Origin: a bacterium
GTDB taxonomy: Bacteria > Patescibacteriota > Minisyncoccia > Phycocordibacterales > UBA2100
Assembly (NCBI GenBank): GCA_030648265.1
Contig: JAUSHX010000010.1
Span: forward strand, 26,253 to 90,252
DNA: 64,000 nt
Reading direction: 5' to 3'
Shown here: positions 25,570-61,243 of the stretch, piece after piece
How the letters are laid out: each line of letters begins with the position of its first letter
Numbering within the stretch: position 1 is the first letter of the stretch
The notes under the pieces: model-generated
The model's database searches: none
What the model saw: only the letters and a program-made list of their open reading frames with translations
Told to the model about the DNA's origin: nothing
Translations under genes and position numbers: made by a program

Positions 25570-26364
25570 TTACCAACACGGGGCGAGAGCGCCCCAGAGG
25601 CCTGCCGCATCTTTGAGCTCCGCGAGACGAAGTTCAGGAAGCTTCGGATAAGGCGAGGAAAAGCGCTTGAGCGCCGACGCGACATCGGCAAGCCGGTAGC
25701 CGTTGTCTTCGTTCATCATTCCGCCTCCGAGCACGAAGATTTCAGGCGACCAATGCAGTATCATATTGTAAATTCCCGCCGCGAGGACGGGCGTCATTTC
25801 CGCGTAGCCTTCGCGCGGCGCCTTGCTTGGGTGAACTCCGTAGCGCTTCTCAAAAGCTCGTCCGGAAACAAGTTCTTCCAATTCCCTGCCCTCTTTCGCA
25901 TCCACGATTTGGTGTCCCGCTTCAAAGTCGTAGACGCCGCCGTCTATGCGCCCATCAACGACGCGGCCGCATCCGATGCCGGTGCCGACGCCGGCATACG
26001 CAACGATGCGCGCGCCGCGGCCTGCGCCATACGCCGCCTCTCCGAGAGCCGCGAAATCTCCGTCGTTCAGCACTTCCGCAGGCGCCCCAAGCGCGTGCGT
26101 AAGCTCCTCGGTGAGCGCGACGCCCTTCCATTCCGGAAGGTTCGGCGCGTACTGTATAACGCCCTTGCCCATTACGCCCGGAAAACCGCCCGCCGCGGCC
26201 TCTATTCCTTCTGCGCCCGCGCACTCGCGCGCGAGATTTGCGAGCGCTTTAACTCCCTCTTTCGGATTTTTAGGAGTCGGTATCTTGCGCACTTCGCCCA
26301 ATCCATCCTCTAATGCGCGCGCCGCGCGCATTGAGGTACCGCCTATGTCAAATACGATTTTCAT
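25570..26364 (-). CDS. ROK-family sugar kinase (glucokinase-like)
   Basis: MKIVFDIGGTSMRAA and a GxGxG ATP-binding region of the ROK/actin-like ATPase fold. The start was chosen at the MKIVFDIGG Met. Confidence 0.7.
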   Translation of the reverse strand: MKIVFDIGGTSMRAARALEDGLGEVRKIPTPKNPKEGVKALANLARECAGAEGIEAAAGGFPGVMGKGVIQYAPNLPEWKGVALTEELTHALGAPAEVLNDGDFAALGEAAYGAGRGARIVAYAGVGTGIGCGRVVDGRIDGGVYDFEAGHQIVDAKEGRELEELVSGRAFEKRYGVHPSKAPREGYAEMTPVLAAGIYNMILHWSPEIFVLGGGMMNEDNGYRLADVASALKRFSSPYPKLPELRLAELKDAAGLWGALAPCW

Positions 26365-35802: not shown

Positions 35803-36714
35803 ATGCGCACGAACTATGAGCATAATGGGGTACTCTGGATAGACCTTGAATCTCCGACACAAGACGAAATAAAAGCAATCGTAGACCAGTTCGGAATCAC
35901 GACGATAGTCGCGGAGGAATTGCTGCTACCCTCAACAAAACCACGCGCGGAACTCTATCCGACATTCGCATACATAGTTCTTCACTTCCCGTCTCTGCGC
36001 CGCGCACATAAATCAGTGGAGCAGGAAGTTGATTTCGTGGTCGGCCGCAACTTTATAATCACCGCCCACTACGACATCATTGACCCCCTTCATAAATTCT
36101 CAAAAATCTTTGAGGTCAACTCTATATTGGACAAAAGCAATATGGGAAACCATGCGGGGTTCTTCTTCTTTTACATGCTCAAAAAGCTATATAAAGGAGT
36201 TGAGTACGAGGTGGAGCGCGTCCGGCATCATTTGAGCACGATAGAAGGCGATATTTTTTCCGGCCACGAGGTGGGTATGGTTGAGGCCATATCCAATACC
36301 TCGCGCGACCTCCTGAATCTCCGGCAAACGATAGAACCACACCGGGAGATTCTGCACACCATTGAATCGGAGGGTGCAAAATTGTTCGGCGATGATTTCG
36401 CGCCGTATTTGCGAGCGCTGTCCAATGAATACTACCGGGTTCACAACCACATCATGCGCAACACGGAATCGCTCCACGAACTGCGGGAAACCAATAATTC
36501 GCTCCTCTCAACCAAGGAAAATGAGACGATGCGGGTTCTTACCATCATGGCGCTCCTTACCTTCCCTCTTGCGTTAGTAGTGGCGATTCTGGGGCTTGAC
36601 AGCCCCTACAATCCCATACACGGACAACCCTATGATTTTTGGATAATCGTCGGCATCGTCGTTGTACTCGGTACATGCATGGTCACTTACTTCAAGCACA
36701 AAAACTGGTTTTAG
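35803..36714 (+). CDS. CorA-family divalent cation transporter (variant GMN motif)
   Basis: Cytoplasmic alpha/beta domain plus two C-terminal TM segments; the loop GLDSPYNP sits where GMN normally is. A perfect TATAAT lies 6 nt upstream of the ATG at 35803 (the ORF track begins at a GTG at 35704). Confidence 0.7.
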   Translation: MRTNYEHNGVLWIDLESPTQDEIKAIVDQFGITTIVAEELLLPSTKPRAELYPTFAYIVLHFPSLRRAHKSVEQEVDFVVGRNFIITAHYDIIDPLHKFSKIFEVNSILDKSNMGNHAGFFFFYMLKKLYKGVEYEVERVRHHLSTIEGDIFSGHEVGMVEAISNTSRDLLNLRQTIEPHREILHTIESEGAKLFGDDFAPYLRALSNEYYRVHNHIMRNTESLHELRETNNSLLSTKENETMRVLTIMALLTFPLALVVAILGLDSPYNPIHGQPYDFWIIVGIVVVLGTCMVTYFKHKNWF

Positions 36715-36724
36715 TGTAATAGGT

Positions 36725-38260
36725 ATGCGTATCCCCTTCTGGCACACACTGCGGTACAGTTTTGGGCGCAAGACGCCGGTATTTCTGTACAACACATTGG
36801 GGGCGGAGAAACAGGAGTTTACGCTTCCAGCATCGGCAAAAACCGTCCGGATGTACAACTGCGGGCCGACCGTGTACGACACCCAGCATATCGGGAACCT
36901 GTCAATGTTCGTGTTTACCGACACTATTCGGAAAGTTCTTGAGTATAATAATTTCAAGGTAAAACAGGTCATCAACATAACCGACGTCGGACACCTCACA
37001 TCAGACAGCGACGAAGGTGAAGACAAAATGACGAAGGGGCTTGAGCGCGAAGGACGCGAACTGACGCTTCAAAACATGTTGGAGCTCGGCGAGCGGTATA
37101 CGAACACCTTTTTGGGAAATCTGCGGGAACTGAATATCAATACTGAACACATTATTTTTCCAAGAGCGAGCGGATATGTTCCCGCCCAAATCGCTATGGT
37201 TGCAACGCTCGTAGAGAAAGGATTCGCATATAAAGCCCCAGACGGAATATATTTCGACACAGCCCGATATCCCGCATACGGGGCTCTCGGCGGAATACAA
37301 GAGAATGCCCACAGTGAGGGCGCGCGGGTTGCCGCAAACAAGCACAAGCACAGCCAGGCAGATTTTGCCTTGTGGAAATTCTCCGCCTCCTCCAAGGGAG
37401 GATCGTCCTCCGGAGGAAAAGGCGGACCCGCCTCGGGCGGAAATATACTCGGCTGGGACAGTCCGTGGGGAAAGGGTTTCCCCGGGTGGCACATTGAATG
37501 TTCGGCTATGGCCCGTGCGGTTCTCGGAGAACAGATTGATATTCATACCGGCGGAATTGAGCACATACCGATACACCACAACAACGAGATAGCACAGTCG
37601 GAGTGTGCGACGGGGCGGAAACCTTTTTCCCGTTTTTGGATCCATCGCGCCCATATACAGATAGAAAGCAAAAAGATAGCCAAGTCTGTTGGAAACGTCA
37701 TATATCTTTCCGACATAATCGCACGCGGGTTCCACCCCATCTCCTTCCGCTACCTTCTTTTGGGGGCACATTACAGGACACCGCTTAATTTCAGCTGGGA
37801 AGCGCTTAGTGCGGCGGAAAAGGCATATTTGCGTTTGCGCTTAATGACCGACAATTATCCCGCCGGTGGCGAAATACATCTGCAATACCAAAAACGTATG
37901 CGGAAACGATTTAACGATGATTTGGACACTGCCGGTGCTCTCGGCGTTTTGTGGGAAATGGTCAGAGACAATACTCTTTCTCATGCGCAGATACGCGCCG
38001 GCATTATGGATGCCGATAAAGTGCTTGGACTGAACCTTGGGAGTATTGATGAGAAAGCTACGGCGGCTTGCATAAAACAATTCGGAAAGAAAGTGGAACT
38101 CGCTCACTTGCCTGATAACGTGCAAGCTATGATAGATGAGAGAAATATCGCACGAGCGGAAAAGAGCTGGGAACAAGCTGACCTTTTGCGCAAGAATCTT
38201 GAAGGAATGGGGTATATTCTGGAAGATTCCGCTAAAGAAACTACTATTTTTAGGAAGTGA
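36725..38260 (+). CDS. cysS: cysteine--tRNA ligase
   Basis: MYNCGPTVYD...HIGN (HIGH), KIAKSVGN (KMSKS), and WHIECS. It contains a Gly/Ser-rich low-complexity insertion ([18 protein letters not shown]). Confidence 0.9.
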   Translation: MRIPFWHTLRYSFGRKTPVFLYNTLGAEKQEFTLPASAKTVRMYNCGPTVYDTQHIGNLSMFVFTDTIRKVLEYNNFKVKQVINITDVGHLTSDSDEGEDKMTKGLEREGRELTLQNMLELGERYTNTFLGNLRELNINTEHIIFPRASGYVPAQIAMVATLVEKGFAYKAPDGIYFDTARYPAYGALGGIQENAHSEGARVAANKHKHSQADFALWKFSASSKGGSSSGGKGGPASGGNILGWDSPWGKGFPGWHIECSAMARAVLGEQIDIHTGGIEHIPIHHNNEIAQSECATGRKPFSRFWIHRAHIQIESKKIAKSVGNVIYLSDIIARGFHPISFRYLLLGAHYRTPLNFSWEALSAAEKAYLRLRLMTDNYPAGGEIHLQYQKRMRKRFNDDLDTAGALGVLWEMVRDNTLSHAQIRAGIMDADKVLGLNLGSIDEKATAACIKQFGKKVELAHLPDNVQAMIDERNIARAEKSWEQADLLRKNLEGMGYILEDSAKETTIFRK

Positions 38261-38267
38261 TGCTTAA

Positions 38268-41200
38268 TTAAACCTTTTCGGATACGACAAAATTGACGAG
38301 CCGGCCGGGAACGACAATCGTGCGTGAGATTTTCTGGCCCACGAGGCGCGCGTCCACGGTCGCGCGCGCGGCTTTCTCCACGGCGCTCTTGTCTGAATCG
38401 GAAGGCACTTGAACTTCCCCGCGCGTTTTGCCGTTTATCTGAATTACGATGGTAACGTTTTCGTCTTTCAGAAGCGCCGGGTCAAACTCCGGCCACTCTT
38501 CCAAGTGTATTGACGTGCTGTTGCCGGCCTCACGCCACAATTCTTCCGCTATGTGCGGGGCAAACGGCGATAACAGCTTCAAAAATATGCTCCACTGTTT
38601 TACGGTTATGCCACCGCTCTTTTCAATGGCATTCAACAATACCATGAGAGCGCTAATGGCCGTATTAAATTTTAAAGCGGAGATATCTTCCCCCACTTTC
38701 TTAATAGTCCTGTGCAACAACGGCTCAATGTTCGCATTTTCTGTTGACTGTAGACTCCCTGCTGTAAACTGACCCACTTTCCAGACCCGCTCAAGAAATC
38801 GCCTCACGCCGACAACGCCATTCGGATTCCACGGATAGCTTGAGACTTCGCTGTATGGCCCGATAAAGGCGAGATACATGCGCACCGTGTCCGCGCCGAG
38901 GCGCGCCACCACTTCGTCCGGGTCAACGACATTACCGCGGGACTTGCTCATCTTCTGGCCGTCGGGGCCCAAAATCAGACTGCGATTCATGCGCCGTGTG
39001 TACGGCTCTGAATCACTCACGAGCCCCATATCAAAGAGTGCTTTGTGCCAGAAACGCGAGTAGAGAAGGTGCATAGTGGTGTGTTCCGCGCCGCCCGAGT
39101 ACAAGTCTACCGGCATCCAGTTCTTTTGTTTATCTTTTGATGCGAATTCTTTTTTGTTCTTCGGGTCTGTGTAGCGCAGGAAATACCAGGATGAATCAAC
39201 AAATGTATCCAGCGTATCGGTCTCGCGCTCCGCCGCGCCTTTGCATTTCGGACATTTCACAGTAACCCATTTTTTAGCTTTCGCGAGCGGAGATTTACCG
39301 CTTCCCTCGGGCAGATAATCTTTGATGTCCGGCAACTTCACTGGCAAATCTTTGTCGGGCACCGCGACATCTCCGCACTTTTCACAATGGATTATCGGTA
39401 TCGGTACGCCCCAGTATCTTTGTCGCGAGACTATCCAATCGCGGAGTTTGTATGTTGTTTTCTTGCTGCCGAGTTTTTCAGTGACCGCTTCCTTTCCCTC
39501 TGCAACAGTCTTGCCGTTGAATGCGCCGGAATTCATCATGACACCATCGCCGGTGTATGCACCCTCCAACTCCCCGACGAATTTTCCCGCGGGCGTAATT
39601 ACCTGTCTGATCGGCAAATCATATTTCTTTGCAAACGCAAAGTCGCGTTCATCATGTGCTGGCACTGCCATGATTGCCCCTGTGCCGTAGTGCCCCAGCA
39701 CATAATCGGCGATATAAACAGGAATCTTTTCTCCCGTCGCCGGATTAATTGCTTCAACACCCTCTAACCTCACACCCGTTTTTTCTTTATTCGTCTGCCG
39801 GTCCATATCAGTTTTCTTTGCGGATAGTGCGATATATCGCACTACTTCCTCCCTATTGTCCAACAAATCTACCCAAGCCTGCCCTCCGAAGCCTTGGCGA
39901 AGGAGGGGATGTTCCGGTGCGAGCACAAGGTATGTGGCGCCGAAGAGCGTGTCGGGGCGGGTGGTGAAGACAGTAATATGCGGTGTAAGCTGTGCAAACA
40001 CTAGCGGTTCTTCTGTGCCGTTGAAATGCTCTTTTTTGGCCTGCCCTTCAATGAATTGGGCGTCAAGTTTCTCGCTTAGTTGCTTTAAGTATGCTCCTCG
40101 ATGCGCTTTTTCCAATGTATCGGAAAGAACCACGCGAAAACTGCACAGCTTCTTAAGATTTTCATAATCAATATCCCAAGAGAAATCCTTCCAAAACGGC
40201 CGCTTTTCTGCGCCCGGAAACGCAGAGTCAATCGCCGGAGCGACCAAGACCAATCCCGCTATGGGACGGTTTATTTTCTGAAGAATTTTCATCGCTACGG
40301 TTCCACCAAGACTGTGGCCGACTATGATGGTGCTTTCATCTATCTGACAATTATCGATTATGTATTGCACTTGCTCGGATTCTTTTGGCTCGGCCGAATT
40401 TGGCATATCGGGCAACTGAACGTTGTAACCCATTTTCTCTAATTCTTCCTTAAGCCATGGCTTGAATGAGCCCTTCGCACTGCCTTTGTATCCGTGCAGA
40501 AGCAAGAAATTTGGCTTGGGGATATCTTTTTTCGCAAATTCCAAAGGGAAATTAATTTCTGCGCCTTCGCTCCTGCCTATCCAATTTCTTTGTGATTCTT
40601 TTATCTGCTCCGGCCAATTTAACGGCGCTAGGTCATCTATCAACCTGTCGGCGTAATCCGTAATCTTGATATTCCACTGAAGCATTTCTTTCTGCACCAC
40701 TTCAGAATCACAGCGCTCGCACCTTCCATCCACTACTTGCTCGTTGGCAAGCACCGTTTTGTCTTTTGGACACCAATTAACCGGAGTGTTTTTCTGGTAT
40801 GCAAGCCCCCTCTTAAAAAGCTGGAGAAAGAGCCACTGCGTCCACTTATAGTAATCCGGATTACAAGTGATAACCTCGCGCGACCAGTCAAACGAAGTAC
40901 CCATTGAGGATATTTGTTTCTTCATGTAGGCAATATTTTCTTCCGTCCATGTACGCGGATTGAGTTTGTTTTTTATCGCCGCATTCTCGGCGGGCAAACC
41001 GAATGCATCAAATCCTATGGGGTATAAAACGTTCTTGCCCCGCATCCGCTCGGCTCGCGCCAAAATATCGGGCAGAGCAAACGCATACCAATGCCCCACG
41101 TGGAGGTTGCCCGACGGATACGGGAATTCTACGAGCAGGTGAAAATTCTCCTTGCCCTTAATAGAATCAGGCGTTTTATATAGTCCGGCCTTAGACCACT

Positions 41201-41276
41201 CCTTCTGCCACTTACGTTCAATAGCCAGATGGTCGTATTTCTTCATATGTTCCATGGTCGCCTGCCCCGTAGCCAA
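38268..41276 (-). CDS. leuS: leucine--tRNA ligase carrying an inserted alpha/beta-hydrolase (serine hydrolase) domain
   Basis: 1002 aa; LeuRS HMGH-like region (PYPSGNLHVGH), the CP1 editing domain (TVFTTRPDTLFGATY), KMSKS (KMSKSRGN) and the anticodon-binding domain. Residues approx. 250-430 form an extra domain (LLLHGYKGS...IIVGHSLGGTVAM). Confidence 0.9.
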   Translation of the reverse strand: MATGQATMEHMKKYDHLAIERKWQKEWSKAGLYKTPDSIKGKENFHLLVEFPYPSGNLHVGHWYAFALPDILARAERMRGKNVLYPIGFDAFGLPAENAAIKNKLNPRTWTEENIAYMKKQISSMGTSFDWSREVITCNPDYYKWTQWLFLQLFKRGLAYQKNTPVNWCPKDKTVLANEQVVDGRCERCDSEVVQKEMLQWNIKITDYADRLIDDLAPLNWPEQIKESQRNWIGRSEGAEINFPLEFAKKDIPKPNFLLLHGYKGSAKGSFKPWLKEELEKMGYNVQLPDMPNSAEPKESEQVQYIIDNCQIDESTIIVGHSLGGTVAMKILQKINRPIAGLVLVAPAIDSAFPGAEKRPFWKDFSWDIDYENLKKLCSFRVVLSDTLEKAHRGAYLKQLSEKLDAQFIEGQAKKEHFNGTEEPLVFAQLTPHITVFTTRPDTLFGATYLVLAPEHPLLRQGFGGQAWVDLLDNREEVVRYIALSAKKTDMDRQTNKEKTGVRLEGVEAINPATGEKIPVYIADYVLGHYGTGAIMAVPAHDERDFAFAKKYDLPIRQVITPAGKFVGELEGAYTGDGVMMNSGAFNGKTVAEGKEAVTEKLGSKKTTYKLRDWIVSRQRYWGVPIPIIHCEKCGDVAVPDKDLPVKLPDIKDYLPEGSGKSPLAKAKKWVTVKCPKCKGAAERETDTLDTFVDSSWYFLRYTDPKNKKEFASKDKQKNWMPVDLYSGGAEHTTMHLLYSRFWHKALFDMGLVSDSEPYTRRMNRSLILGPDGQKMSKSRGNVVDPDEVVARLGADTVRMYLAFIGPYSEVSSYPWNPNGVVGVRRFLERVWKVGQFTAGSLQSTENANIEPLLHRTIKKVGEDISALKFNTAISALMVLLNAIEKSGGITVKQWSIFLKLLSPFAPHIAEELWREAGNSTSIHLEEWPEFDPALLKDENVTIVIQINGKTRGEVQVPSDSDKSAVEKAARATVDARLVGQKISRTIVVPGRLVNFVVSEKV
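39989..40529 (-). other. inserted alpha/beta-hydrolase domain within leuS (RBBP9/YdeN-like serine hydrolase fold)
   Basis: About 180 aa between NWIGRSEGAEINFPLE and TPHITVFTTRPDT, where E. coli LeuRS has only NDYDNT. Contains GHSLGG in a nucleophile-elbow context. Confidence 0.7.
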
Positions 41277-41379
41277 TGCGTAGCATTGTGGTACCGGGGT
41301 AAGCTTTCATATAATTACCATATCATACCGCAAATATGCAGAAAACCCCGCATATTGGGCGGGGTTTTCTGCGATTACG

Positions 41380-46729: not shown

Positions 46730-47131
46730 CTATTGCTTTATTTTCTTATATATAATCCACGCTACCCATAGATATGCGAGGTATGAGCCCACAAGGCCAA
46801 TATCACCTGCAGGTCCTGAAAAATCCGCTATTTCTGGAAAAAGATAAATCTGTATAACCGAGCCCAGACTGAGTACGGCCACCACATAAATTCCAAGGAA
46901 TAGGGTGACAGGGGTTTGTCCGATTTCCGGTATCACATTAGGAGTTACCTTATGAGTGCGCCGGGAGAAAATAAAGAAACCACACACTAAAATTGTAATT
47001 ACAAAAAGCTTTACGAGCGTTTGCCAGAAATCGCTAAGATTGGGGAATAAATCGGAAATGATAGCATTCCCAAAAAATGAAGCTAATAAAAATACACCAA
47101 AAAATATCCATGCCTTGTTGAGGTTGCTCAT
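46730..47131 (-). CDS. hypothetical small membrane protein (inserted in the atp operon)
   Basis: 133 aa with four hydrophobic helices; lies between the NUDIX gene and atpD. Confidence 0.4.
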   Translation of the reverse strand: MSNLNKAWIFFGVFLLASFFGNAIISDLFPNLSDFWQTLVKLFVITILVCGFFIFSRRTHKVTPNVIPEIGQTPVTLFLGIYVVAVLSLGSVIQIYLFPEIADFSGPAGDIGLVGSYLAYLWVAWIIYKKIKQ

Positions 47132-47541
47132 ACGTTGAAAGGATTATACCCGCTATCTACTAAATTTCTAGTGGAGATAAATAATGGTTGCGGAAGCGAA
47201 TCCCATCTTGACCATCTCCATTCTTCACATTTATCCGGCTCCAACACCTGCGGCTCGCCGGCTTTCCAATCTGCTTCATAAAACAGTGTCAGGTAATGCA
47301 TTCCCGAGTCTTTGGCAATGTCATTTGTAAAAGTTATAAAGCGCACGTTTTTGATCTCTATACCTGTTTCTTCCAGAATTTCGCGAATAGCGCATACCTC
47401 CAGCTCTTCATACATATCCAATTTACCGCCAGGAATAGCCCATGTCCCGGACATAAGACCACCTCTACGCTTTCCCATCAATACTTTCCCGTCTTTGCGA
47501 ACGCAAACTCCTATCCCAACTCCCGGTCGTGCTTGTTCCAT
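47128..47541 (-). CDS. NUDIX hydrolase
   Basis: Nudix box GGKLDMYEELEVCAIREILEETGIE. Confidence 0.8.
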   Translation of the reverse strand: MEQARPGVGIGVCVRKDGKVLMGKRRGGLMSGTWAIPGGKLDMYEELEVCAIREILEETGIEIKNVRFITFTNDIAKDSGMHYLTLFYEADWKAGEPQVLEPDKCEEWRWSRWDSLPQPLFISTRNLVDSGYNPFNV

Positions 47542-47584
47542 GTTTCTAGTCGCTATACCCTATTCGCTAATCGCTACCCCCTAC

Positions 47585-60655: not shown

Positions 60656-61243
60656 TTACATTTCCGGACTGAATAATTTTCGTAGTTCCTCTTTCTTTCC
60701 GGCATTGAATTTTGCTTCGCGTAACGCAGGAATAATCTCGTTTTCTCTAAATCTGTCATTTGTGCCCATCTCCAGAAATTCATCAAACGTCATGGGCTTA
60801 AGAGTGATTTTCTCCCCCGCATCAAGGTGAATGTCTGCAACTTTCTTTAGCCCTTTTGCAATAAATGTGTAAATAGCCCAGTCAATTTTACCGATTGGCT
60901 GTTGTGAATCCCACAATATAAATTTCTCCGCCTCGTATCCGCTTTCCTCTAGAAGTTCTCTTTTTGCCGCTTCAAGAATTCCCTCTCCCTCGTCCACTCG
61001 TCCGCCCGTGGCACCAATGAAAGGCTCTTTTCCCGGCTGTTCCTGCTCTGTCAAAATAATTCTGCCATCGGGGAGCACGGGGTATACGACAACGGTGTCC
61101 GGCCGTTTTAATTTCTCAAAAATCTCGGTCGTGCCGTCAAACATTTCTTGCTCCCACTGGTACACGTCAAAAATCTGCCCCCTGAATACCCGCTTTGCGT
61201 GAGGGGGAATCGGTTGCGTTGATTTTGGCCGTTCTATGTCCAC
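60656..61243 (-). CDS. NUDIX hydrolase (ADP-ribose pyrophosphatase-like)
   Basis: Nudix box GGRVDEGEGILEAAKRELLEESGYE. Confidence 0.8.
   Translation of the reverse strand: MDIERPKSTQPIPPHAKRVFRGQIFDVYQWEQEMFDGTTEIFEKLKRPDTVVVYPVLPDGRIILTEQEQPGKEPFIGATGGRVDEGEGILEAAKRELLEESGYEAEKFILWDSQQPIGKIDWAIYTFIAKGLKKVADIHLDAGEKITLKPMTFDEFLEMGTNDRFRENEIIPALREAKFNAGKKEELRKLFSPEM

Follow-up and report, generated by a model that had tools for sequence, protein, structure and literature searches.

A predicted YdeN/RBBP9-type serine hydrolase nested in the CP1 hairpin of a patescibacterial leucyl-tRNA synthetase

Why should a bacterial leucyl-tRNA synthetase (LeuRS) carry, at the threshold of its CP1 editing domain, a second domain that looks like a complete serine hydrolase? 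The question is raised by the leuS gene of a 64,000-nucleotide stretch of contig JAUSHX010000010.1 (assembly GCA_030648265.1, Patescibacteriota; positions 26,253 to 90,252), the whole of which we call the window. In the open reading frame (ORF) listing of the window, leuS is one long ORF on the minus strand, 38268..41276, of 1002 aa counted from a TTG codon, and residues are numbered throughout on this 1002-aa ORF. An initial annotation, made from the sequence alone, had placed an insert at approximately aa 250-430 (nt 39989-40529) inside an otherwise colinear LeuRS. This was borne out, with exact limits at aa 244-432 (nt 39981-40547), so that 189 aa are found at the tip of the first CP1 beta-hairpin.

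A hydrolase domain at the tip of the first CP1 hairpin

The nested domain and its main residues are located as follows, conservation being counted on a MAFFT alignment of the window protein and its 120 best LeuRS matches (56-79% overall identity; n=121).

39981..40547, minus strand: nested YdeN/RBBP9-type serine hydrolase cassette, aa 244-432, of type 'alpha' (SD..E..R), from profiles, AlphaFold2, Foldseek and cassette typing
40491..40496, minus strand: H261-G262, the HG that follows strand 1, in FLLLHGYKGS; H261 in 121/121, G262 in 116/121
40305..40319, minus strand: nucleophile elbow G320-H-S322-L-G324 (IIVGHSLGGTVAM), with the Ser322 codon at 40311-40313; G320, S322 and G324 each in 121/121
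40200..40202, minus strand: Arg359 of the RPF motif, a basic position (R in 111 and K in 8 of 121)
40110..40121, minus strand: acid motif D386-T-L-E389; D386 in 120/121, position 389 always acidic (D in 84, E in 37)
40026..40028, minus strand: putative catalytic His417 of the HF motif, 121/121, aligned to GGHF of YdeN

Searched alone, the insert matched the Pfam family PF06821 (Ser_hydrolase) with E = 4.7e-11 and 43.3 bits for a cut-off of 22, a score that was 38.6 bits inside the whole protein, and generic alpha/beta-hydrolase families of Pfam also matched (PF00561, E = 3.8e-11). Among PDB sequences, YdeN (1uxo) was recovered over nearly its full length with E = 4.4e-11, and human RBBP9 with E = 1.9e-7. 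All the matches of the insert in Pfam, NCBIfam and PDB were to alpha/beta-hydrolase families and none was to an editing family of the aminoacyl-tRNA synthetases (aaRS), that is CP1, INS/YbaK, AlaX or DTD.

An AlphaFold2 model of the full protein was built on a 65-sequence alignment and reached a mean predicted local distance difference test score (pLDDT) of 82. The insert is its best-predicted region (pLDDT 91-96) and is flanked by long strands, 236-247 and 433-438, that form the CP1 hairpin bearing the domain at its tip, with CP1 continuing from aa 433; the position given initially, just before the CP1 editing core, is the one seen in the model. Modelled alone, the insert reached a pLDDT of 94.8 and a predicted TM-score of 0.91, its secondary structure following the beta-alpha-beta order that a minimal alpha/beta hydrolase has. 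In a Foldseek search of PDB the first seven matches were all RBBP9 or YdeN (TM 0.78-0.83, root-mean-square deviation 2.6-3.2 A), ordinary lidded esterases ranking after them with far weaker E-values. The initial annotation had likened the insert to RBBP9/YdeN and had proposed a profile search of the insert alone, a structure prediction and an alignment of related LeuRS as checks: the profile and fold matches agree with that family, the predicted structure is that of an independent domain, and the insert is present in all 120 nearest LeuRS. According to these models, aa 244-432 make up a whole alpha/beta hydrolase of the YdeN/RBBP9 family, which has no lid and folds on its own.

YdeN of B. subtilis (PDB 1UXO; PF06821, formerly DUF1234) has the same lid-less fold of ~185 aa (TM 0.81, root-mean-square deviation 2.6 A over 186 columns), and both proteins have HG, GHSxG, an acid after the penultimate strand and HF. 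YdeN is however free-standing, whereas the insert is nested within another enzyme; the window cassette also has Glu for the Asp-Pro of the acid motif, and it falls, unlike YdeN, in a subfamily from the Candidate Phyla Radiation (CPR) marked by E301-Q302, R359-P-F and E423-P424. Human RBBP9 (PDB 2QS9, 7OEX, 9FCR), the only member of the family with a characterised activity, shares family and fold with the insert (TM 0.78-0.83) at 23-24% identity, but is not fused to other domains.

The sequence motifs quoted initially, namely FLLLHGYKGS, the elbow IIVGHSLGGTVAM around S322 and a downstream acid and His (D386/E389 and H417), were all found again. From the fold, H261-G262 would occupy the oxyanion-hole position. 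The elbow aligns to the GHS of YdeN and RBBP9 and is located, in the AlphaFold2 model, at the junction of strand 316-321 and helix 323-335; E389 is aligned with the catalytic Asp of YdeN and RBBP9 (SxxD-P motif), D386 ends strand 378-386, and E423 is conserved in 121/121. A triad of Ser322, His417 and an acid (386/389) is plausible from this alignment. Mean identity to the window protein is 41% for the insert against 73% for the LeuRS backbone; the insert is thus far more variable than the backbone and yet its active-site residues are invariant, which argues for selection on catalysis. Judged on its sequence, there is hardly any doubt that the insert is an active serine hydrolase and that purifying selection acts on it.

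A non-catalytic role, in which the hydrolase fold would have been reused, for instance as a spacer in the structure, as a platform for binding or to regulate the movement of CP1, appears very unlikely to us. The activity of the insert is indeed a prediction, and the cassette type of the window has Glu-Lys (SDTLEK) for the usual Asp-Pro of the acid motif; but Glu is well accepted as the acid of alpha/beta-hydrolase triads, no part of the triad, the HG motif or the nucleophile elbow varies, and the free-standing homologues retain the same residues.

The probability that the whole architecture is artefactual, whether through chimeric assembly, through a frameshift that joined two genes or as an intein, is negligible. 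The insert is not an intein, as had been stated initially: it has no Hint/intein match in Pfam, it begins with PLEF and ends with LTP followed by HITV, and its junctions lack the residues of an intein (Cys/Ser at the N-junction, HN followed by Cys/Ser/Thr at the C-junction). A chimera, which the initial annotation had named as the danger to be checked, can be ruled out because the architecture is clade-wide and synteny is shared in orthologous loci: the same in-frame arrangement, with both junctions, was found in more than 120 independent assemblies drawn from NCBI, JGI, ENA and Logan, and in syntenic loci (DUF5671, leuS, CysRS, CorA), and the composition of the window has no GC or skew break at the insert borders.

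Distribution, hosts and exchange of the cassette

All of the 120 closest LeuRS (961-1159 aa) carry the insert with its catalytic Ser and His, and most of them have precomputed alpha/beta-hydrolase Pfam matches. The named relatives are Candidatus Kaiserbacteria, Paceibacterota or members of the Parcubacteria group (Patescibacteria). The architecture had been described as unfamiliar, and for the literature this holds: in open-access papers and bioRxiv, including the literature on aaRS architecture and AARS Online, we found no description of an alpha/beta hydrolase or of a NUDIX domain in LeuRS. It does not hold for the sequences themselves, since the insert is common to all the nearest LeuRS and these sequences have been public for years under generic automatic names, some of which already mention an esterase ('leucyl-tRNA synthetase/predicted esterase', 'alpha/beta fold hydrolase', 'NUDIX domain-containing protein').

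Word-based searches returned little, 8 proteins for a word-index search with the insert alone and one distant cyanobacterial hydrolase only for a scan of contigs with exact peptide words from the insert and its junctions; an exact match to the window protein was absent from the contig index, and the distribution was established with full-length and exhaustive searches. Using HMMER with the insert against 1.84 billion cluster representatives, we collected 1447 relatives, 258 of them at E <= 1e-10. Hosts were then listed for the 150 best representatives, the domain being placed by BLAST against the window LeuRS and by Pfam. In this census the hydrolase subfamily is nested at no fewer than four LeuRS sites, which include the CP1 hairpin used in the window and the following:

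CP1 loop, ~563-574: P0250, P0212, P0248
after the first Cys knuckle, ~aa 635: P0156, P0200 (Taylorbacteria), P0179, P0160, P0225, P0180
inside the anticodon-binding domain, ~aa 834-854: P0236 (Peregrinibacteria)

The same nested hydrolase was found in ValRS (P0182), AlaRS (P0169), Fmt (P0206), TsaD (P0192), SecA (P0177) and UvrA (P0202). A profile made from the hydrolase domains of these non-LeuRS hosts returned almost only free-standing proteins and did not recover the query hosts. Free-standing members of the subfamily, of 180-195 aa and with E301-Q302, HF and E423-P424, are abundant in Patescibacteria.

Some of these proteins have features of their own. In P0180 (998 aa, Candidatus Parcubacteria, partial) the hydrolase follows the first Cys knuckle, and the CP1 hairpin holds an in-frame Y1 transposase domain of IS200-like type (PF01797, E = 5e-14); the LeuRS P0195 (1318 aa, JGI) has a GNAT acetyltransferase domain as well as the hydrolase ahead of CP1. 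P0202 and P0206 have WHSLWW for GHSLGG, with Trp at the conserved Gly; this suggests that the genes belong to lineages in which UGA encodes Gly (code 25) and that they were translated as if it encoded Trp.

A second catalytic domain often accompanies the first. In 83 of the 120 relatives (P0013-P0128), a NUDIX domain of ~150 aa is found in a second CP1 loop, at the position of window aa 563-574, and 79 of these domains have a strict Nudix box; classification of these nested domains with NCBIfam and PDB gave no specific subfamily match. A neighbour-joining tree of the backbones implied ~17 gains or losses of the NUDIX domain, a figure made unreliable by the crude method and by likely recombination. 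The association is also seen outside LeuRS: P0198 is a NUDIX-hydrolase fusion within a gene cluster of Ham1, NUDIX and alpha/beta hydrolase (L002:3686-6014), and another free-standing hydrolase gene overlaps the downstream NUDIX gene by 20 nt (L006:5001-5991). Apart from this link, the neighbourhoods of seven free-standing homologues had no consistent operon; aaRS genes are next to or near two of the seven, which is within chance by our informal estimate. In one of these neighbourhoods (L004:4635-5564), the free-standing hydrolase gene directly follows a small GIY-YIG gene, 1.5 kb from pheST. The window itself has two NUDIX ORFs with strict boxes, 47128-47559 and 60656-61243, both on the minus strand, which share only 26-29% identity over short stretches with the NUDIX domains nested in LeuRS.

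When the inserts of the 121 LeuRS were compared with one another, three types could be distinguished; members of one type share 52-62% identity, and members of different types 33-42%:

type 'alpha' (n=37, the window among them): SD..E..R
type 'beta' (n=50): HD..D.A[IV]S
type 'gamma' (n=34): YD..D..VP

All three are found with and without NUDIX, and the catalytic residues are kept in all three. The gamma cassettes are nearer to a free-standing protein (median 169 bits) than to the alpha or beta types (116-122 bits), and certain inserts, such as that of P0018, resemble mosaics of two types. Identity of the insert is hardly related to identity of the backbone (r = 0.10 over 7260 pairs): among the pairs with at least 80% backbone identity, 72 of 144 have insert identities of 40% or less, and P0080 and P0095 have backbones that are 92% identical and inserts that are 31% identical. 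The same can be seen at the nucleotide level in codon-aligned orthologues. Between the window and the syntenic locus L013 (1116-4100), nucleotide identity is ~76-91% in the flanks, falls to 40-54% across aa 235-430 and then recovers, while with L014 (6001-9087), of the same cassette type as the window, it stays at 60-74%. Because insert similarity is uncoupled from the backbone and identity drops sharply at the cassette, the cassette has its own evolutionary history. Three deeply diverged and exchangeable cassette types share one loop in Kaiserbacteria-like CPR bacteria, and the cassette has been replaced by recombination or repeatedly re-acquired.

Such mobility could be that of a selfish or near-neutral passenger, spreading by recombination or in-frame insertion into tolerant loops of essential proteins and persisting since precise loss is rare. 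The insertions are always nested and never terminal, in many unrelated essential hosts; replacement has sharp boundaries; the transposase domain of P0180 is in frame at the same hairpin, and a GIY-YIG gene stands beside one free-standing copy. We nevertheless consider a passenger of this kind improbable. Catalytic residues that are invariant in 121/121 over three cassette types imply selection on enzymatic activity, the cassette is kept in all 120 nearest LeuRS, no terminal repeats (direct or inverted) or target-site duplication were found at the borders of the window insert, and Pfam finds no endonuclease or splicing motif within the cassette.

An intact synthetase as host

The host enzyme can be followed from end to end, and its parts are listed here.

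38268..41276, minus strand: leuS ORF, from TIGR00396 (997.6 bits), the alignment to 1h3n and the starts of orthologues
40548..41246, minus strand: N-terminal half, class I catalytic domain and first strand of the CP1 hairpin, aa 11-243, aligned to 1h3n 1-242
41091-41102, minus strand: HVGH motif, aa 59-62; H59 and G61 invariant
39447..39980, minus strand: CP1 editing domain proper, aa 433 to ~610 (PF13603, 200 bits)
39948-39965, minus strand: T-rich motif TTRPDT, aa 438-443; T439, R440, D442 and T443 invariant in 65 sequences
39642-39656, minus strand: HDERD, aa 541-545; D542 and D545 invariant in 65 sequences
39555..39590, minus strand: CP1 surface loop, aa 563-574, short in the window and the NUDIX site in relatives
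38271..39446, minus strand: C-terminal catalytic half, anticodon-binding and C-terminal domains, from Pfam and the 1h3n alignment
within 38271..39446, minus strand: Cys4 knuckles C631/C634/C675/C678, invariant or nearly so
38940-38954, minus strand: KMSKS, aa 775-779, invariant or nearly so

The protein scores 997.6 bits against the NCBIfam profile TIGR00396 (leuS_bact; cut-off 548.4), and Pfam finds tRNA-synt_1, the editing domain PF13603 and Anticodon_1. In the alignment with the LeuRS of T. thermophilus (1h3n), residues 1-242 correspond to query residues 11-251 and the alignment resumes at query residue 433, again at residue 242; at the insertion point T. thermophilus has only ~8 residues (PVEGKEVR), the window protein having ~181-189 aa more. 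Canonical bacterial LeuRS (T. thermophilus 1H3N/2BYT; E. coli 4AQ7) are colinear with the window LeuRS along the full length and have in common with it the HIGH-type and KMSKS motifs, the T-rich and Asp residues of CP1, the Zn knuckles and the anticodon-binding and C-terminal domains. They differ from it by the 189 extra residues at the tip of the first CP1 hairpin, and the leucine-specific insertion of T. thermophilus (roughly residues 594-637, unaligned) is absent from the window protein. The true start of leuS is probably M11 (ATG 41244-41246), which gives 992 aa, and the TTG is likely unused, since the orthologues in syntenic loci begin with MKKYDH.

The synthetic motifs HVGH and KMSKS and the CP1 editing residues, among them D545, which we take to be the equivalent of E. 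coli D345, are thus all intact by sequence, with no decay on the LeuRS side. A hydrolase standing in for a dead CP1 was considered and rejected because the editing residues of CP1 are invariant.

Around leuS the gene order is YchF, DUF5671, leuS, then the convergent CysRS, CorA, an S41 peptidase and a P-type ATPase, and it is the same in two orthologous loci. After the upstream DUF5671 gene there is a GC-rich hairpin followed by a T-run (aaaaccccgcccaatatgcggggtttt, 41341-41368, minus strand). The neighbouring CysRS ORF (36662-38260, plus strand) has a Gly/Ser-rich low-complexity stretch at 37379-37444 within its catalytic domain, and the start listed for it, a TTG at 36662, overlaps the CorA gene and probably lies upstream of the true one.

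What the nested hydrolase may do

The reading that we favour, tentatively and at somewhat less than an even chance, is that the hydrolase is an autonomous enzyme tethered to LeuRS, with a small substrate of its own and no integrated step in the editing cycle. It is suggested by the abundance of free-standing homologues, the many sites and hosts, the uncoupling of cassette and backbone and the recurrence of NUDIX. LeuRS would offer a loop at its surface that tolerates the insertion, together with constitutive expression and perhaps locality. The hydrolase would act on its substrate through an acyl-enzyme intermediate at Ser322, in the same pathway as the NUDIX pyrophosphohydrolase that is its recurrent partner both in free-standing and in nested form.

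As to the substrate, the best guess by analogy with the family would be an alpha-aminoacyl or similar ester, thioester or amide, since RBBP9 needs a free alpha-amine and activates valacyclovir. RBBP9 is a serine aminopeptidase that forms an aminoacyl-enzyme and in which Glu108 anchors the alpha-amine of the substrate (PMC8866121), and it also activates the valyl-ester prodrug (Shenoy 2020, as cited in PMC7730578). The insert has the conserved Arg359 at the position of Glu108, in a loop where the alignment is uncertain; substrate recognition probably differs from that of RBBP9, and the Arg hints at an anionic group on the substrate.

Several points weigh against an autonomous enzyme of this kind. 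Each of the non-LeuRS hosts is represented by a single 50%-identity cluster representative, and the window LeuRS has no NUDIX domain, its loop at that position being of 12 residues (box sought: GX5EX7REUXEEXGU). The hosts are moreover enriched for enzymes of tRNA and aminoacyl-tRNA (LeuRS at four or more sites, ValRS, AlaRS, Fmt and TsaD, against SecA and UvrA), which hints at a link to such chemistry, and the cleavage by RBBP9 of alpha-aminoacyl amides and esters with a free amine (PMC8866121; Shenoy 2020, as cited in PMC7730578) is the chemistry of aminoacyl-tRNA deacylation.

These last points lead to a hydrolase coupled to the chemistry of the synthetase, which would cleave an aminoacyl ester or thioester made or held by it; by analogy this is plausible, though less likely than the autonomous enzyme. 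In one version, possible but less supported than an autonomous module, the cassette would be a second deacylase for mischarged tRNALeu. In the other it would remove harmful by-products of editing, for example homocysteine thiolactone, stray aminoacyl-adenylate or aminoacyl-thioesters, while NUDIX would deal with the nucleotide part or with diadenosine tetraphosphate (Ap4A). The argument is a chain of analogies rather than evidence, and its links are the free-amine requirement and aminoacyl-enzyme of RBBP9, the alpha/beta-hydrolase valacyclovirase BPHL, which is an efficient homocysteine thiolactonase (PMC4198189), and the misactivation of homocysteine by MetRS, IleRS and LeuRS in vivo (PMC3309450). 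Coupling would also account for hosts that are mostly tRNA or aminoacyl-tRNA enzymes, for LeuRS having been entered independently at four sites or more, two of them in CP1, and for the aaRS genes next to or near two of the seven free-standing homologues, although that proximity is, by an informal estimate, within chance expectation. Against it, fully conserved CP1 editing residues leave no defect to compensate; the scattered sites, one of them inside the anticodon-binding domain, together with the hosts SecA and UvrA, imply no required geometry to the tRNA 3' end; the cassette types swap freely without co-variation with the backbone; and the conserved Arg replaces the amine-anchoring Glu108 of RBBP9. 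The initial annotation had envisaged either an extra deacylase or proofreading activity or a moonlighting function: the latter fits the evidence better, which on the whole speaks rather against a mechanism tightly coupled to the editing of LeuRS.

A broader proposal can be made, which we regard as speculative and improbable as it stands: CPR bacteria would own an unrecognised class of exchangeable catalytic cassettes (a YdeN-type hydrolase, often NUDIX, sometimes GNAT) in loops of class I and class II aaRS and of other tRNA enzymes, forming together a synthetase-associated clearance system for aminoacyl esters and thioesters or aminoacyl-nucleotides. Conceivable targets are mischarged tRNA, homocysteine thiolactone, aminoacyl-adenylates that have gone astray, or toxins of the aminoacyl-nucleotide class.

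A synthetase with an added domain is of a known kind, and the nested hydrolase is a new member of a known family. The editing modules of aaRS (CP1 of LeuRS, IleRS and ValRS, INS/YbaK of ProRS, AlaX or the second additional domain of AlaRS and ThrRS, the DTD-like domain of archaeal ThrRS) are, like the insert, hydrolase domains built into or acting with a synthetase, and they act on aminoacyl esters; neither the alpha/beta-hydrolase fold nor a Ser-His-acid triad occurs in any of them, however, and the insert is found beside a CP1 that is intact. Among curated families, NCBIfam NF040702 ('isoleucine--tRNA ligase, N-acetyltransferase domain-containing') is the nearest precedent for an unrelated catalytic domain within a class Ia synthetase; the window protein differs from it in domain family, host and insertion point and does not belong to it (85 bits for the whole protein, for a cut-off of 1999). 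Human BPHL, an alpha/beta serine hydrolase for alpha-amino-acid esters and homocysteine thiolactone (PMC4198189), is a functional analogue of the idea of by-product detoxification only, being larger, lidded, of a different subfamily and not among the top sequence or structure matches of the insert.

The aaRS are among the best-studied enzymes, and a new catalytic domain in a bacterial LeuRS was not to be expected. Here a whole CPR lineage keeps an apparently active hydrolase, usually together with NUDIX, in the part of an essential enzyme that serves for editing. Should the hydrolase act on aminoacyl esters or on by-products of the synthetase, it would represent translational quality control of a new kind; if a clearance system of the kind proposed above exists, it would be a new, fold-unrelated layer of such control or of self-protection, and the rapid swapping of cassettes would reflect a shifting pressure of substrates or toxins. 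If the cassette is instead an autonomous passenger, it would be a natural example of nested-domain 'hosting' and of cassette exchange in the essential genes of genome-reduced symbionts, and would offer a tractable context for the bacterial YdeN family.

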